NCBI GenBank assembly: GCA_934119935.1
Contig: CAKOSX010000005.1
Span: 4,933 to 68,932 of the forward strand
Source: an uncultured Clostridia bacterium
GTDB taxonomy: Bacteria > Bacillota > Clostridia > TANB77 > CAG-508
Direction: 5' to 3'
Length of the DNA: 64,000 nt
Shown: positions 2,928 to 59,643 of the stretch, piece after piece
How positions within the stretch are numbered: the first letter of the stretch is position 1
Layout of the letters: every line of letters begins with the position of its first letter
Made by a program: the position numbers and the translations under genes
Notes under the pieces: generated by a model
What the model was told of the DNA's origin: nothing
The model's database searches: none
Seen by the model: the letters and a program-made list of their open reading frames with translations, nothing else

Positions 2928-3749
2928 TTAGGCTACTAACTCGGAATGTTCTCTGTATTGAACAGGGGACATTCCTTTTAGTTTGCTCTTAATTCTTCTG
3001 TTATTATAATATTCTATATATTCAATTATATTATTTTCTAATTCTTCTATATTTTTATACTCTTTTTCTTTTATATAATAGAGCTCTGATTTTAATATTC
3101 CAAAAAAGTTCTCTGCACATGCATTATCTAAACAATTTCCTTTTCTTGACATACTTTGCCTAATACCCTTTTGTTCTAATAAATATTGATATTGTTTCAT
3201 TTGATACTGCCATCCCTGATCAGAATGTAATATTAAATTGGTATTATCTGGTATTTTATTAAATGCTTTTTTTAACATATCTACTACTTGATTAAATACT
3301 GGATGTCGAGATAAATTAAAGCTTATTACTTCACCGTTAAACAAATCTACTATTGGTGATAAATAAAGTTTATCATTATTAACTTTAAATTCCGTTACAT
3401 CTGTAGCCCATTTTTGGTTTGGCTTATCTGCCTTAAACTCTCTTTTTAATAAATTATCTGCTATTTTTCCTATTGTTCCTTGATATGAATTATATCTTCT
3501 TTTTGGTCTTTGAATGCTTTGTAATCCCATTATTTGCATTATTCTTGCAACTGTCTTATGGTTTATTATATAGCCACGATTTCTCATTTCTAATGTTATT
3601 CTTCTATAACCATAACGTCCTTTATTTTCATTAAATATAGATAAAATTTCGTCTTTTTCTGCCTTATATTTATCTTTTTTCTTCATTTTTTTTAGATTAT
3701 AATAGAATGTACTTCTTGGTATTTCTGCTAATTTTAATAATTCTCTCAA
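2928..3749 (-). CDS. IS3-family transposase OrfB (DDE integrase core), probably made as an OrfAB fusion
   Basis: rve-type core (WATDVTEF..., HSDQGWQY, NACAENFF). The frame stays open upstream (VIVVDELRHKYS) into the orfA overlap. Confidence 0.9.
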   Translation of the reverse strand: MRELLKLAEIPRSTFYYNLKKMKKKDKYKAEKDEILSIFNENKGRYGYRRITLEMRNRGYIINHKTVARIMQIMGLQSIQRPKRRYNSYQGTIGKIADNLLKREFKADKPNQKWATDVTEFKVNNDKLYLSPIVDLFNGEVISFNLSRHPVFNQVVDMLKKAFNKIPDNTNLILHSDQGWQYQMKQYQYLLEQKGIRQSMSRKGNCLDNACAENFFGILKSELYYIKEKEYKNIEELENNIIEYIEYYNNRRIKSKLKGMSPVQYREHSELVA

Positions 3750-20394: not shown

Positions 20395-20535
20395 CACTCC
20401 ATTTACATTTAATGGAATTAAATATAAAACGTTTGTTTGTGTTTGTCAAGCATTTTTTATATTTTCCTAAAAAAAAAGTTGTATTCTTCTAAATAGATAA
20501 TACAACCATTTTTCACTTAATACATATATAAATTT

Positions 20536-20620
20536 TGGTGGAGATGAAGGGAGTTGCCAAGCCGCGTCGGGAAAATTGTCCACTGGACAATTTTCTATTC
20601 CTCCTTTTCGACTCCCTAGA
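20536..20620 (-). repeat. distal att-like unit: 21-nt tmRNA 3'-end core plus a 64-nt conserved arm
   Basis: TGGTGGAGATGAAGGGAGTTG, then GCCAAGCCGCGTCGGGAAAATTGTCCACTGGACAATTTTC... Nearly identical to 25063-25147. Confidence 0.8.
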
Positions 20621-20926
20621 ACTTTATATTATTCATTTAAGTTATATATAAAGTTCTAGTTTTTCTTTCTGTTCTGGTGCCATCGAGGTAGTTATCTACA
20701 ACTTTTTGGCTCTCATAACGATTGAGACAAATATCAATCAATTTATATATAAATTAACAGATTTTTTTATAAAAATCAAGAAATTTTATAAAAAAATCTT
20801 GCGAAATTTTGTTTCTTTTATATTGATTAATTTTAAATTCTATGTTATACTAGCTGACATAGGAAATGATGATAAGCAGATGTGGTTTTGCCACCAATTA
20901 TACGAAATATCGTAAGAGAGGTGGTG

Positions 20927-21046
20927 ATGTTTATGGTTAAAGTGATACTATTTTTTATAATATCATTTATGTTATCTTTAACATTAAACGTTGCCTTGAC
21001 AGCAGTTCTGTATAAGAACTGGGTTGATAAGCAACTACATAAATAA
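20927..21046 (+). CDS. small hydrophobic peptide, type I toxin-like (39 aa, or 37 aa from the second ATG)
   Basis: GAGGTGGTG SD. MFMVKVILFFIISFMLSLTLNVALTAVLYKNWVDKQLHK has a single TM helix and a basic tail. A paralogue lies at 59271-59372. Confidence 0.6.
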   Translation: MFMVKVILFFIISFMLSLTLNVALTAVLYKNWVDKQLHK

Positions 21047-21049
21047 AAA

Positions 21050-21135
21050 AGCTCACATCTGTAACTTTGGCGAGTTAGGTGTGAGTTTTTACAACTAATT
21101 TCGGCAAAACCACGTTTGTGGGTTTGTCATTTCCT
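21050..21135 (-). ncRNA. predicted antisense (antitoxin-like) RNA convergent with the peptide gene
   Basis: Minus-strand promoter TTGACT-17-TATAAT (21170-21142). The start lies near AGGAAATGAC, and the RNA shares the bidirectional hairpin at 21050-21085. Confidence 0.45.
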
Positions 21136-21190
21136 ATATTTATTATACACAGATATTTAAGAAAAGTCAAATAAAATTTCGCAATTAAAA

Positions 21191-24948: not shown

Positions 24949-25062
24949 CCTTTCGTTTGGATGATTTTTATATTGTTTTTAAACAACAAAAAAATCAACC
25001 AGATTTATTTTCTGATTGATTTTTGTATCTATCTGTTTTATTAGTTCGAACAGATACGTCAT

Positions 25063-25147
25063 TGGTGGAGATGAGGGGAGTTGCCGAGCCGCGTCGGGAA
25101 AATTGTCCACTGGACAATTTTCTATTCCTCCTTTTCAACTCCCTAGA
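25063..25147 (-). repeat. proximal att-like unit: 21-nt tmRNA 3'-end core plus a 64-nt conserved arm
   Basis: TGGTGGAGATGAGGGGAGTTG, then GCCGAGCCGCGTCGGGAAAATTGTCCACTGGACAATTTTC... It lies only 51 nt from the true tmRNA end. Confidence 0.8.
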
Positions 25148-25198: not shown

Positions 25199-25560
25199 TG
25201 GTGGAGATGAGGGGAGTTGAACCCCTGTCCAATATTCTTTCCATATACGTTTCTCCGAGTGCAGTTTGTTATTTAATTTTCCCTGTAAAATTCATTAACA
25301 AACAAACGGATTTTACAAGTAACCATTTGTTTTACCTACTGTTTTAATGGCTAAAACAGTGTTGTTATCCTACTAATTGACGCCTTATCTAAGACCGTAG
25401 GCCTTCTTAGTAAGACGGGCCGCCTAAGCTTAGGCAGCGTATGCTAATTCTGTATTATCAGCGTTTATTTTTATTTCTGCTTTTTTATAGTGGCCGAAGC
25501 AGCCATCCACTACTCGCTACATATACTTCTGGGATACTGTCGAAAACCAAATACATCCCC
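25199..25560 (-). ncRNA. ssrA: transfer-messenger RNA (tmRNA)
   Basis: The 5' end GGGGATGTATTTGGTTTTCGACAG pairs with the 3' end CATCTCCACCA. T-arm AGGGGTTCAACTCCCCT. Tag reading frame GCT GAT AAT ACA GAA TTA GCA TAC GCT GCC TAA encodes ADNTELAYAA. Confidence 0.93.
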
Positions 25561-56305: not shown

Positions 56306-57394
56306 TTATACATTAAATTTAAATAATACTATATCTCCATCTTGCATTACATATTCTTTACCTTCTGAACGAACTAATCCTTTTTCTTTTGCAGCTGTCA
56401 TCGAGCCTTCTCTCATTAAATCTTCATAAGAAACTATTTCTGCTCTAATGAATCCTCTTTCAATGTCTGAGTGAATTTTTCCTGCAGCCTGTGGAGCTTT
56501 TGTTCCTTTCTTTATTGTCCAAGCTCTTACTTCTGGCTCTCCAGCTGTTAAGAATGACATTAATCCAAGTAAATCATAGCTTGCCTTTATTACTTTATCT
56601 AGTCCAGATTCTTCCAAACCTAGTGCTTCTAGCATTTCTTTTTTATCATCGCCATCTAAGCTTGATAATTCTTCTTCTATTTTTACACAAAGCTTTATAA
56701 CTTCTGCCTTGTCTTGTTTTGCATATTCTTTTACACTATTTACATTTGCATCATTTTCATCTAATAATTGATCTTCTGAAACATTTGCAACATATAAAAT
56801 TGGCTTCATTGTTAATAAGAATCCATCCCTTACTATTTCTAGTTCTTCATCTGTATACTCCAAGCTTCTTGCTGGCTTGCCATTTTGCAAAGCATCTCTT
56901 ACTTTTTTCCATGTATCAAATTCTAATTGATATTTCTTATCACCTTTTATTAATTTACTTGCTCTATCAATTCTTTTTTCAACAGTCTCTAAATCTGCAA
57001 AAACTAGCTCTAAATTAATAGTTTCTATATCTCTTACTGGATTTATACTTCCATCAACATGTATTATGTTTGAATCTTCAAAACATCTTACAACTTGGCA
57101 AATTGCATCTGTTTCTCTTATATGAGATAAAAACTTATTTCCTAATCCTTCACCTTTGCTTGCTCCTTTTACCAAACCTGCTATATCCACAAATTCAATT
57201 ACAGCATGTGTAACCTTTTGAGGATTATACATCTTTGCTAGGTTGTCCAATCTCTCGTCTGGCACTGGAACTACTCCAACATTTGGTTCTATTGTACAGA
57301 ATGGATAATTTGCACATTCTGCTCCTGCATTTGTTATTGCATTAAATAAAGTACTCTTTCCTACATTTGGAAGTCCTACAATTCCTATTTTCAT
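56306..57394 (-). CDS. ychF: redox-regulated ribosome-binding ATPase YchF
   Basis: GLPNVGKSTLFN G1 motif and a TGS-like C-terminus. Start set at MKIGIVG; the track ORF is extended upstream. Confidence 0.93.
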   Translation of the reverse strand: MKIGIVGLPNVGKSTLFNAITNAGAECANYPFCTIEPNVGVVPVPDERLDNLAKMYNPQKVTHAVIEFVDIAGLVKGASKGEGLGNKFLSHIRETDAICQVVRCFEDSNIIHVDGSINPVRDIETINLELVFADLETVEKRIDRASKLIKGDKKYQLEFDTWKKVRDALQNGKPARSLEYTDEELEIVRDGFLLTMKPILYVANVSEDQLLDENDANVNSVKEYAKQDKAEVIKLCVKIEEELSSLDGDDKKEMLEALGLEESGLDKVIKASYDLLGLMSFLTAGEPEVRAWTIKKGTKAPQAAGKIHSDIERGFIRAEIVSYEDLMREGSMTAAKEKGLVRSEGKEYVMQDGDIVLFKFNV

Positions 57395-57520
57395 TATATC
57401 TTCGACCTTTCTTTTTCTTATAGCTATTATAATATAACACAAATTATTACTTTTGGCAATTAATTTATTTAAGGTTCCATACCGGAACCCCAAATAGAAT
57501 TTTAAATATATTTTTCACTA

Positions 57521-58369
57521 TTATTTGAATAATTTATTAAACGTATTCTTTCCAACTATTCCATCTTGTGATAATCCATTTCTTTTTTGAAATTCTCGTA
57601 TCGCACTTTCTGTTGCAGGTCCGAATATTCCGTCTGCATTAATGTTAAATAATTTGCAAATAAGCATTGACTGAATTAGCCAAGTGATGTTTCCTTCTGC
57701 TCCTCTTCGAACATTTATGCAGGCATTGTAAGTGTTAGTTCCAAATATTCCATCGACTGCTAGTTTACTTCCAAACTGTTTATTTAATTCTGTTTGTAAT
57801 CCCTTCACCAATGCCTTCTTCGTCTCGTTTCCATAAATATTATCTACTGAAATATTTAAGCCATATTTTTCATTTAAAGAGGTTTGTATTGTAGCTATTT
57901 TTCCCTTTTCTTGGCTTGGTTTTGATACTCCTGTTTCATTTGAATTTGCTATTTGATCAAATGGAAAATTGTCACCCGGGCAATTTGTTGCATTTACATT
58001 TTTATGAACTTGTACTGTGTTTATTCCATATTTATTTTTTAAAAAATTTACAAGTTCTCTTCCAGCCTTAATCTCCTCCTCTTGCATTATTTCTTCCTTA
58101 TAATCTCCTTCAAAGCAAATTCCCAATGAATCATAATTTGCACCATATGCATGAGCTCCAACTTTATCCTCTGGACGAAGTCTATATATTGTGCCGTCTT
58201 TTCTTACCAGAAAGTGATATCCAGCTCCACTCCAACCGTTGCTTAAATGCCACCTGTGAATATCTTCAGCTGAGCACCTTTTTGCAGCAGCATGATGCAA
58301 AATTATTCTTTTAGTAGAGCTACGTGTATCCATTTGTTTAAAATTTAAATTTGTATTAATTATATTCAT
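57521..58369 (-). CDS. N-acetylmuramoyl-L-alanine amidase (Amidase_2/PGRP) with tandem peptidoglycan-binding repeats; endolysin-like
   Basis: The HHAA...GYHF...NCPG amidase_2 pattern plus PG_binding_1-like repeats (DGIFG...). Confidence 0.85.
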   Translation of the reverse strand: MNIINTNLNFKQMDTRSSTKRIILHHAAAKRCSAEDIHRWHLSNGWSGAGYHFLVRKDGTIYRLRPEDKVGAHAYGANYDSLGICFEGDYKEEIMQEEEIKAGRELVNFLKNKYGINTVQVHKNVNATNCPGDNFPFDQIANSNETGVSKPSQEKGKIATIQTSLNEKYGLNISVDNIYGNETKKALVKGLQTELNKQFGSKLAVDGIFGTNTYNACINVRRGAEGNITWLIQSMLICKLFNINADGIFGPATESAIREFQKRNGLSQDGIVGKNTFNKLFK

Positions 58370-58371
58370 AT

Positions 58372-58572
58372 TTATTTTTTCTCCCTATTGCTAATAGCCT
58401 TCTGACCAAGTAAATACGTACTTATTACACCTTGAACAACGGCTATTACTTGTACTATTTGAATCGCATATGGTATTGTTATTCCTTCTACAGCATTAAT
58501 TCCAGTAACCAAAGCACTAATAATTGCCAAAACATTTATTGTATATTTTGCTATTGTCTTAATCTTTTCCAT
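58372..58572 (-). CDS. putative holin (66 aa, two TM helices, basic C-terminus)
   Basis: Small membrane protein ending in NREKK. Its stop lies 2 nt before the amidase start. Confidence 0.6.
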   Translation of the reverse strand: MEKIKTIAKYTINVLAIISALVTGINAVEGITIPYAIQIVQVIAVVQGVISTYLLGQKAISNREKK

Positions 58573-58676
58573 ATTAAATCCTCCTAATATATTGTATTCG
58601 AGAATTTTTTTATTGAGACTATTTACACGAATTTAGATAAAAAATTTATTTTTTCATAATTTTCAATTGGAAATAT

Positions 58677-58705
58677 TTGACTTTTCCTGTAAAATATTGT
58701 ATAAT
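58677..58705 (+). promoter_or_regulatory. near-consensus sigma-A promoter (TTGACT-17-TATAAT) for the 72-aa ORF
   Basis: Read directly. It is followed by a ~90-nt leader containing two hairpins. Confidence 0.6.
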
Positions 58706-58798
58706 TTTGCCAGTAACATATTTTAATATGTGTTGCCTTCGAATATATACAGAGTTCGGAGGCACAATCCTCCGAACAATCACAAGGAGGAAGTTTTA

Positions 58799-59017
58799 AT
58801 GAAAGTATCGATGAATGACAAGGTCAAAGTCAAACTGAACAAGATCGGCGATGAATTGCTTCAAAAAGTTTTGGGAAGTTCTCAGGAGCTTCCCAAAAAG
58901 GATCCTGAGGGTTATACCGAAATGAAGTTTCTCTATCTCCTTAAGATGTTCGAGGATTTCGAATATCTGGGTGAGGTCAACAAGCCGTTTGACGGCGATG
59001 TTATTGTAATCGCATAA
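58799..59017 (+). CDS. hypothetical 72-aa protein, compositionally atypical
   Basis: AAGGAGG SD 8 nt before the ATG (MKVSMNDKVKV...). G+C is visibly higher than the flanks. Followed by a 16-bp-stem terminator. Confidence 0.55.
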   Translation: MKVSMNDKVKVKLNKIGDELLQKVLGSSQELPKKDPEGYTEMKFLYLLKMFEDFEYLGEVNKPFDGDVIVIA

Positions 59018-59054
59018 TTTCATTTCATGGTACAGGCCTTATCACATGTACCAC

Positions 59055-59108
59055 AACCACCAGCAGAGTTACTCATTTCAGAGCAACTCTGCTGGTGGTT
59101 TATTTTTT
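59055..59108 (+). terminator. strong rho-independent terminator
   Basis: AACCACCAGCAGAGTT/AACTCTGCTGGTGGTT stem followed by a T-run. Confidence 0.85.
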
Positions 59109-59151
59109 ATATAACTAGATTAAATTTATAACAAAAATCGTTGTCAAAAAA

Positions 59152-59180
59152 TTGACAAACAGATAATTAATGTATATAAT
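59152..59180 (+). promoter_or_regulatory. perfect consensus promoter (TTGACA-17-TATAAT) for the antisense RNA of type I module 2
   Basis: Read directly. The -35 hexamer lies within the palindrome TTGTCAAAAAATTGACAA. Confidence 0.7.
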
Positions 59181-59186
59181 AAATAT

Positions 59187-59270
59187 AGGAAATGAAAAAC
59201 CACAATCGTGGTTGCCACATATTATTGTAACAACACATCTGCTGGCCAAAGCAAAGATGTGTTGTTTTAT
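59187..59270 (+). ncRNA. predicted antisense (antitoxin-like) RNA of type I module 2
   Basis: It starts at AGGAAATGAAAAACCAC... six nt after the -10 and ends at the shared hairpin AACAACACATCT.../...AGATGTGTTGTT. Confidence 0.5.
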
Positions 59271-59372
59271 TTATTCCTTATTTGACAAAATTATGTATAT
59301 AATTGCTAATAAGGCTACGTTTATAGTAAGGGAAAATCCCAATGCATATATTAAAAATAATATAATACCCAT
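59271..59372 (-). CDS. small hydrophobic peptide, type I toxin-like (33 aa)
   Basis: GAGGTGGTG SD. MGIILFLIYALGFSLTINVALLAIIYIILSNKE shares the SLT(L/I)NVAL core with the peptide at 20927-21046. Confidence 0.6.
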   Translation of the reverse strand: MGIILFLIYALGFSLTINVALLAIIYIILSNKE

Positions 59373-59567
59373 AAACACCACCTCACTTTCCCATAGTATA
59401 TACTATGAAGTAAAGTGGCAACACACTTGCTTATCTCATTTCCTATATCAATTACTATACTATATATATTAATAAAAAACAAGCGAACACTAAAAATATA
59501 TGCATATTTTTTTATGTTAGATAAAATAAAAAAATTAAAGTTATATAAAACTCTAATTTTTTCATTC

Positions 59568-59643
59568 TGGAGCTAACAACCGGAATTGAACCGGTGACCT
59601 CAGCCTTACCAAGGCTGCGCTCTACCTACTGAGCTATGATAGC
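59568..59643 (-). tRNA. trnT: tRNA-Thr (anticodon GGU), encoded CCA end
   Basis: Manual cloverleaf: anticodon arm CAGCC-TTGGTAA-GGCTG, T-arm CCGGTTCAATTCCGG. One T-T mismatch in the acceptor stem. Confidence 0.85.

Follow-up and report, generated by a model that had tools for sequence, protein, structure and literature searches.

A type I toxin-antitoxin-like module, probably of a new family, in uncultured Clostridia

Type I toxin-antitoxin (TA) loci are recognized by a gene for a small (<60 amino acids, aa) hydrophobic membrane peptide, by an antisense RNA gene that overlaps the toxin mRNA, and by a toxicity of the peptide that the RNA neutralizes. In the par locus (Fst / RNA I-RNA II) of Enterococcus faecalis pAD1, convergent promoters read towards a shared bidirectional terminator and a 5' stem-loop of the toxin mRNA sequesters the Shine-Dalgarno (SD) sequence (PMC7472228), a device that is also known in other type I toxin mRNAs (PMC6563280). 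In the txpA/RatA and bsrG/SR4 systems of Bacillus subtilis, a convergent antitoxin RNA is complementary to the 3' end of the toxin mRNA and the duplex is an expected substrate of RNase III; the Clostridioides difficile systems (CD2517.1/RCd8 and others) consist of convergent overlapping genes with toxins that lack homology to earlier families; and homolog searches with known type I toxins return almost nothing in most Clostridia (PMC6563280). The present work concerns a locus at positions 20823-21180, called module 1, in a 64,000-nucleotide (nt) stretch of contig CAKOSX010000005.1 from an uncultured Clostridia bacterium, the whole of which is referred to as the window. The layout of this locus most closely resembles that of par, and is also like those of the 3'-overlapping txpA/RatA and bsrG/SR4 pairs, and the locus is probably a self-contained type I TA-like module of a new family, made up of a presumed toxin and a putative antitoxin RNA. 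No paper describing this family of modules was found in a literature search.

An earlier interpretation of the window made without database searches (the sequence-only reading) had proposed for module 1 a plus-strand promoter, an SD sequence, an open reading frame (ORF) and a hairpin, together with a minus-strand promoter, and every one of these elements was recovered. The toxin promoter, TTGATT-17-TATACT (20823-20851, plus strand), matches the consensus at 9 of 12 positions and carries a TG-extended -10; its -10 (TAtAnT) and the TTG of its -35 recur across the subfamilies described below, less strictly than the elements of the antisense promoter. Seven bases past the -10 begins an 11-nt box, ATAGGAAATGA (20859-20869), which is the predicted 5' end of the toxin mRNA and the first block of the left arm of an inverted repeat. 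The second block of this arm, GTGGTTTTGCC (20882-20892), runs into the anti-SD UUGCCACC (20888-20895), and is followed on the same strand by the apical hairpin of the leader, UACGAAAUAUCGUA (20901-20914), and by the SD region GAGAGGTGGTGA (20916-20927), which contains the SD GAGAGGTGG at 20916-20924. The peptide ORF, MFMVKVILFFIISFMLSLTLNVALTAVLYKNWVDKQLHK, occupies 20927-21046, including the TAA stop codon at 21044-21046, and specifies 39 aa, or 37 aa from the second ATG at 20933. The bidirectional terminator (21045-21090, both strands) comprises an A-run, a hairpin at 21051-21086 with the loop region CUUUGGCG, and U5. On the minus strand, the antisense promoter TTGACT-17-TATAAT (21142-21170), with 11 of 12 consensus matches, precedes the start sequence AGGAAATGACAAACCCACAAACGTGGTTTTGCC, read from 21135, and the predicted antisense RNA of ~95 nt (21041-21137) runs from 21137/21135 to ~21041 and consists of a single-stranded 5' tail, AUAGGAAAUGA, a stem-loop SL1 (21106-21126, CAAA.CCAC-AAAC-GUGG.UUUG), a spacer, and the terminator hairpin, after which a long U-run extends over the toxin stop codon. 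The right arm of the inverted repeat, GGCAAAACCAC...TCATTTCCTAT, lies at 21103-21137.

Module 1 is real, conserved and autonomous, and chance is ruled out as an explanation of its layout by a paralog in the window and by a family of such loci in other genomes. The paralog, module 2 (59171-59515, minus strand), which adjoins tRNA-Thr and encodes the peptide MGIILFLIYALGFSLTINVALLAIIYIILSNKE (33 aa), is 69% identical to module 1 over 370 nt (E 2.6e-22) and has the same parts in the same order; in the alignment its start codon falls on the second ATG of module 1. The box ATAGGAAATGA occurs in exactly four copies in the window, which are the four arms of the two modules. The family was delimited by scanning one genome per species for nothing more than the palindromic pattern of the two 11-mers, 237-267 nt apart, and the pattern matches at least 120 species-level genomes. 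The hosts among the matches listed are nearly all uncultured Clostridia represented by metagenome-assembled genomes (MAGs) from the guts of humans, rabbits, chickens, goats and deer, and among the at least 120 loci listed all but one hold a hydrophobic ORF of 33-40 aa with a strong SD between the arms. The exception, in an Agathobacter MAG (L064, 3915-4185), was rejected as a false positive of the pattern, since it is an unrelated long inverted repeat with ~60-nt arms in which the 11-mers occur by chance; that element contains no ORF and has the look of a miniature inverted-repeat transposable element (MITE). The whole architecture is kept on contigs from human gut samples. Genomes often contain several modules, which are sometimes in tandem (L007, L011, L092): the two modules of L011 (4197-4478 and 4708-4985) are 230 nt apart, and L007 and L092 also have two modules each, at spacings of a few hundred to a few thousand bases. 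A DNA search of cultured phage and plasmid records gave no match, and only two contigs in IMG/VR match the palindromic pattern.

The peptides of this family fall into subfamilies, with A representing the module 1 type, B and B2 the module 2 type, and C and D including, for example, MVESALLTIIYLLFYGLIGVTIINIALIITLVIILSK. Peptides of the A/B branch form 48 protein clusters in a collection of 5.8 billion proteins, all of them unnamed or hypothetical and none with a Pfam domain, and the C/D branch forms 713 clusters. The similarity between the A and C/D peptide profiles is not significant in an hhalign comparison, so that one homologous RNA scaffold carries peptides without provable protein kinship. 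The module 1 peptide likewise has no family match in Pfam (E up to 10), NCBIfam, PHROGs or the sequences of the PDB, lenient thresholds included. Judged from its pattern of substitution, the ORF is a real coding gene under purifying selection: the ratio of nonsynonymous to synonymous polymorphism within subfamilies is 0.31-0.58 (0.41 for the module 1 ORF), and codon position 2 is the least variable position of the ORF, as is expected if hydrophobicity is being kept. AlphaFold predicts a single helix from residue 2 to residue 37 with a mean pLDDT (per-residue confidence score) of 95. In the peptide, a hydrophobic core holding the polar motif SLTLNVAL is followed by the charged tail YKNWVDKQLHK. 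With 37-39 aa, one helix and coding selection, the product has the features of the small hydrophobic membrane peptides of type I loci. The opposite pattern, a conserved repeat around a peptide ORF that is not conserved, which the sequence-only reading had named as the mark of a purely RNA or DNA element, is not seen within the subfamilies.

The start region of the toxin ORF is predicted to be closed by the leader of its own mRNA. In the minimum free energy (MFE) structure of module 1, the anti-SD UUGCCACC (20888-20895) pairs with GGUGGUGA (20920-20927), enclosing the apical hairpin at 20901-20914, and at the start codon AUAAGCA is joined to UGUUUAU. In 104 of 115 distinct leaders the SD core pairs with the upstream block, and the partners covary, as in UUGCCACC:GGUGGUGA, UUACCACC:GGUGGUAA, UUUGCCUCCU:AGGAGGUGAG and UUGCCUUUAAUU:GAUUGGAGGUGA, a further illustration being GCCUCCU:AGGAGGU. 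Because the SD core pairs with the block 2 region in so many leaders, and does so with covariation, part of block 2 in the left arm is an anti-SD.

The conservation of the RNA features was evaluated in a sample of 60 distinct modules from metagenomes, which is unbiased with respect to these features because peptide similarity was the sole criterion of choice. No part of the module is as well conserved as the antisense promoter: TATAAT is present in 59 of the 60 and TTGAC in 58, none is without a promoter, and the promoter is at least 90% conserved in every subfamily. A covariance model of the antisense RNA (R1), built from 105 sequences, matches only the two modules in the window, at 90 bits for module 1 and at 72 bits for module 2 (59185-59275, plus strand), and finds 105 homologs in 100 sources. 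In the R1 alignment, 20 of 24 base pairs change on both sides, and in the terminator stem alone 12 of 14 pairs do so among 93 distinct sequences; the SL1 stem appears as CCAC/GUGG, CACAG/UGUG, CGCAG/UGCG and AUACAG/UGUAU. Paired cells make up 87.3% of the alignment, compared to 70.9% in shuffles and 38-48% in controls with slid partners, and the covariation score of 0.347 (0.101 in shuffles) was reached by none of 500 shuffles; the alignment was fitted to the model, so that these counts lean towards structure, but the slid controls still argue strongly for it. The terminator hairpin itself is interrupted by a bulge and is supported by RNAfold as well as by this covariation. Across modules its U-tract is 2-5 U long on the sense strand (UU in module 2, U5 in module 1) and 7-10 U long on the antisense strand, lengths that could not be taken from MFE structures, in which the A-run pairs with the U-run. 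A test of G.U orientation for the strand on which SL1 is selected gave a mixed result.

Over the final ~55 nt of the toxin mRNA the complementarity of the antisense RNA is perfect, and the cofold of the two RNAs contains one 55-bp intermolecular duplex over the stop codon, the A-run and the terminator, leaving SL1 and the closed toxin leader intact. The conserved promoter, the covariation and this duplex bear out in silico the proposal of the sequence-only reading that an antisense RNA covers the 3' end of the peptide mRNA, and with it the second feature of type I loci, an antisense RNA gene that overlaps the toxin mRNA. By analogy with described systems and from the predicted structures, we infer the following mechanism, in which both strands would be transcribed. 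The moderate toxin promoter would give an mRNA of ~235 nt for the single-helix membrane peptide of 37-39 aa, the presumed toxin, and the primary transcript would be translationally closed, with UUGCCACC holding the SD/start region GGUGGUGA. The near-consensus promoter on the opposite strand would give the ~95-nt RNA, which would end at the same hairpin acting as a bidirectional terminator. The two terminator hairpins would then make contact through their loops, and pairing would spread into a long duplex that marks the toxin mRNA for cleavage by a double-strand-specific RNase and for 3' decay, as in txpA/RatA and bsrG/SR4, and it is by this route that the toxicity of the peptide would be neutralized; the closed leader would meanwhile delay translation, as in par.

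The comparison with par is the closest, but it is not complete. The module shares with par its convergent promoters, a single bidirectional intrinsic terminator that gives the two RNAs complementary terminator stem-loops, and a toxin mRNA 5' stem-loop that sequesters the SD, and its peptide is like Fst in being small and single-helical with a charged tail that contains Trp. Unlike the peptides of the Fst/Ldr group, however, the peptides of modules 1 and 2 lack the PXXXG motif; there is no proline in either and no match to Fst in Pfam, and on these sequence characters the module is not a member of the Fst family. The repeats of par are direct, whereas those of the module are inverted in the DNA, and the two RNAs of the module therefore share 5' sequence rather than 5' complementarity; complementarity of the DRa/DRb type at the initiation region was not detected above background in duplex energies. 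In addition, the 5' end of the module's toxin mRNA is predicted to be free instead of being held in an upstream helix, and its antisense RNA, at ~95 nt, is longer than the ~40 nt of par RNA II (PMC7472228). The loop region CUUUGGCG contains UUGG, a candidate for the YUNR U-turn of a toxin terminator loop, although the boundaries of the loop vary with the fold.

With txpA/RatA and bsrG/SR4 the module has in common the overlap of the antisense RNA with the 3' end of the toxin mRNA. The overlap in those systems is ~120 nt, while in the module it is ~55 nt and is essentially the shared terminator, and the module peptide lies outside the TxpA/BsrG family (Hol_Tox), which it matches in neither Pfam nor NCBIfam. 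The potential for long-range 5'-3' pairing and a translationally closed primary transcript recall hok/sok (tac/fbi), but the 3' arm of the module lies beyond the terminator hairpin, its antisense RNA is encoded at the 3' end and not over the leader, the peptide has no homology to Hok, and the pairing lacks the support of compensatory changes. The systems of C. difficile are similar in having clostridial hosts, convergent overlapping genes and a toxin without homology to earlier families; they differ in their toxins of 50-53 aa, their long complementary regions and their location beside CRISPR arrays or in prophages, and no sequence similarity was found between the module and these systems. Among RNA families, the best Rfam match is RF02589 (Spy779816, an sRNA of Streptococcus pyogenes), at 21045-21133 on the minus strand, which coincides with the predicted antisense RNA, with 26.1 bits against a gathering score of 67. 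It likewise has a 5' stem-loop followed by a terminator and the same CGCCAAA terminator loop, but membership was rejected because the score is below the threshold and module 2 gives no match; the resemblance is regarded as due to chance or, at most, as a remote analogy.

The inverted repeat that encloses the module, which had been described as one imperfect repeat of ~33 nt, is present, but it is not continuous: two exact 11-nt blocks surround a diverged centre of 12-13 nt. The box is exact in 47 of the 60 peptide-selected modules on the left and in 45 on the right. The promoter of the antisense gene together with its first ~35 nt is, by its sequence, a diverged mirror copy of the toxin promoter and leader, and it is because of this mirroring that the inverted repeat exists and that both RNAs start with the tail AUAGGAAAUGA. 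The tail is predicted to be mostly unpaired in both RNAs, with a mean unpaired probability of 0.64-0.90 over nt 1-11. Both RNAs also contain a GUGGU(n)GCC block, which runs into the anti-SD in the toxin mRNA and forms the 3' arm of SL1 in the antisense RNA. The two arms co-vary between subfamilies, in that the number of U residues in GUGGU(2-4)GCC is equal in both and GCUACC is found in both arms of the L008 type, and this co-variation would be accounted for by gene conversion, by fold-back of the mRNA, or by pairing between the 5' arm of SL1 and the leader. Nothing in the toxin mRNA was identified as a partner of the 11-nt 5' box, for which runs of 6-9 pairs are at the level of shuffled boxes, and no candidate for a target in trans was found.

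The fold-back of the mRNA 5' end onto its 3' end, which formed part of the sequence-only reading, would make the locus an analog of the hok fbi/tac switch: a toxin mRNA reading through to ~21137 would pair its 3' arm with the 5' leader, and the antisense RNA would compete for that arm, thereby setting the conformation of the leader and with it translation or stability. The antisense RNA is indeed a perfect complement of the 3' arm and a near-copy of the leader, and the MFE structure of the hypothetical read-through transcript has an 11-bp helix between the box and its complement plus ~11-17 further pairs in all 123 of 123 distinct modules. For the arms in isolation the pairing energy is -36 to -45 kcal/mol, and the sense orientation is favoured over the antisense one by 4-12 kcal/mol; the between-subfamily co-variation and the short sense U-tracts beside the long antisense ones are also consistent with such a switch, as are the transitions between arms, which are 85:11 in favour of changes that G.U pairing on the sense strand would tolerate. 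This last bias is largely one of composition, however, because the antisense arm must be A/C-rich in order to pair with a G/U-only partner in SL1, and transversions are biased alike (T/A 40:9). Fold-back requires read-through, since the 3' arm of module 1 is separated from the ORF by a 13-bp hairpin with U5, and no sense terminator is evident downstream. The arms are otherwise employed, the 5' arm holding the anti-SD and the 3' arm encoding SL1; shuffling of the arm centres shows a residual match of the size expected of diverged duplicates; and of 59 natural variants of family A, 20 changed box 1 in one arm only and 2 in both, with identity not restored. Given the need for read-through, the other roles of the arms and the lack of any compensatory change in the peptide-selected sample, the fold-back is not established, and we consider such a switch unlikely. 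A slightly less doubtful proposal, though still a tentative one, is that the antitoxin RNA mimics the toxin leader, its co-evolving first ~35 nt competing with the leader for one partner, which would be either the 3' arm of a read-through transcript, in a panhandle switch, or a shared factor or RNase that binds the 5' tail. If this were true, control would depend on competition or on a decoy and not on simple occlusion by an antisense RNA, a mode that to our knowledge is undescribed for type I systems.

Control in the manner of par, in which the terminator loops first make contact and the antisense 5' domain then pairs with the leader or with the initiation region, blocking the ribosome and producing a stable inert complex instead of decay, appears no more probable than the fold-back switch. 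It would draw on the convergent promoters, the shared bidirectional terminator and the SD-sequestering stem-loop, all of which are present, and in a few modules (L059, L061) the segment after SL1 has 12-13 bp of complementarity to the SD-AUG region; the 5' arm of SL1 is also complementary to GUGGUUUUG in the leader, a direct repeat in the DNA. The predicted duplexes that the antisense 5' domain forms with the leader are nevertheless no better in energy than those of shuffles (z -0.3 to -1.0), cognate pairs do no better than non-cognate ones (-9.8 vs -10.3 kcal/mol), the pairing in module 1's own family is weak (~-8 kcal/mol), pairing through the 5' arm of SL1 merely swaps an equal intramolecular stem, and the cofold keeps SL1 and the leader closed. 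It is somewhat less probable again that the locus is not a TA system, and that a harmless small membrane protein is accompanied by a convergent sRNA which regulates the ORF or acts on other targets in trans. The presumed nature of the toxin role, the absence of a toxin-family match and the position of module 2 among core genes favour that explanation, but SD sequestration, an antisense promoter much stronger than that of the toxin, the presence of several divergent copies in a genome, placement at the borders of islands and disappearance of the peptide with the RNA gene kept are together typical of type I TA loci, and the 5' box has no candidate target in trans. A MITE-like miniature mobile element with the inverted repeat as its terminal repeats would explain why inverted arms bracket a short cargo and why several copies per genome are found, often near tRNA genes. 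That origin is highly improbable, given that the window copies are only 69% identical and the family ORFs are under purifying selection, that conserved promoter elements lie outside the arms, that the arms carry demonstrated RNA functions, and that neither conserved termini nor target duplications were seen beyond the -35 boxes.

The interpretation of module 1 as a type I TA-like module whose antitoxin RNA acts at the 3' end of the toxin mRNA must also be set against several observations that weigh on the other side. The peptide matches no known toxin family in the searches described above, and the antisense RNA belongs to no Rfam family at threshold. A simple terminator scan called no hairpin at module 1. 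The overlap of the two RNAs is only ~55 nt long and is mostly locked in stable hairpins on both of them, which makes efficient pairing an assumption. The model does not account for the shared 5' box or for the way in which the arms co-vary between subfamilies, and the host organisms are nearly all uncultured. The TA-like reading first made from the window has strong support, in all but its fold-back part, from sequence conservation, RNA covariation and selection on the coding frame in over 120 loci.

The modules occupy variable parts of their genomes, and their setting links them to tRNA and tmRNA genes. Module 1 sits ~200 nt inside an island of ~4.4 kb that has an 86-nt direct repeat at its borders (20535-20620 and 25062-25147, with 97% identity between the copies). 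The first 21 nt of each copy are the 3' end of the tmRNA gene at 25199-25560 (minus strand), and the island looks like an integrated element, or the remnant of one, at ssrA. Its cargo consists of module 1, a 151-aa ORF, a 787-aa ORF with a GH10 domain and three small ORFs, with no integrase seen. The neighbouring 151-aa gene was considered as a third component and rejected, as the arrangement in the window recurs in only 2 of the 120 genome loci listed and any nearby homolog in 8; because the gene is so rarely adjacent, the module is autonomous. Of 129 modules in the family, 16 have a tRNA or tmRNA gene no more than 300 nt away. Systems of the txpA/RatA and bsrG/SR4 type are often found on prophages or islands. 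Module 2 lies directly downstream of tRNA-Thr (59568-59643), among the core genes amidase, ychF, hrcA and dnaK. Two 'viral' contigs of IMG/VR (L127, L128) are ~96.6% identical to 57362-59586 of the window and end there.

Several other features were noted around the modules. A conserved segment of ~70 nt at 20672-20745 (TGGTGCC...TTGAGACAAATATCAATCAA) is where many family-A loci begin their homology with the window, and the divergence of two loci (L003 and L004, both 3270-3340) begins exactly at GTGGTGC, where a tRNA gene has its 3' end, which suggests an att-type junction. Just 5' of the toxin promoter, at 20759-20799, is a perfect 16-bp inverted repeat composed only of A and U, with a 9-nt loop (AGATTTTTTTATAAAA...TTTTATAAAAAAATCT), which may be an insulator or a weak terminator. 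Near module 2, a very strong G+C-rich hairpin followed by a T-run (59050-59105, plus strand), which also drew a spurious sub-threshold SurC match, probably terminates the 95-aa ORF at 58730-59017.

The decay of modules in the family is asymmetric, with toxin ORFs lost beside antisense genes that are kept. The R1 model finds three antisense genes at which the toxin ORF is truncated, interrupted or gone (L076, 7305-7399; L078, 1027-1118; L030, 2448-2542), and at another locus (L028) the toxin is frameshifted, while the antisense promoter is absent from none of the 60 peptide-selected modules.

These modules constitute a sizeable and wholly unannotated superfamily in uncultured gut Clostridia from human, rabbit, chicken and ruminant hosts, with at least 120 species genomes, and the R1 model together with the sequence signature provides a ready means of annotating it. 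The mirrored, co-varying leaders of the two RNAs offer a tractable case for the origin of an antitoxin RNA gene from the toxin's own 5' region. Because they are found at the edges of tRNA- and tmRNA-linked islands, the modules may stabilize mobile DNA in gut bacteria.

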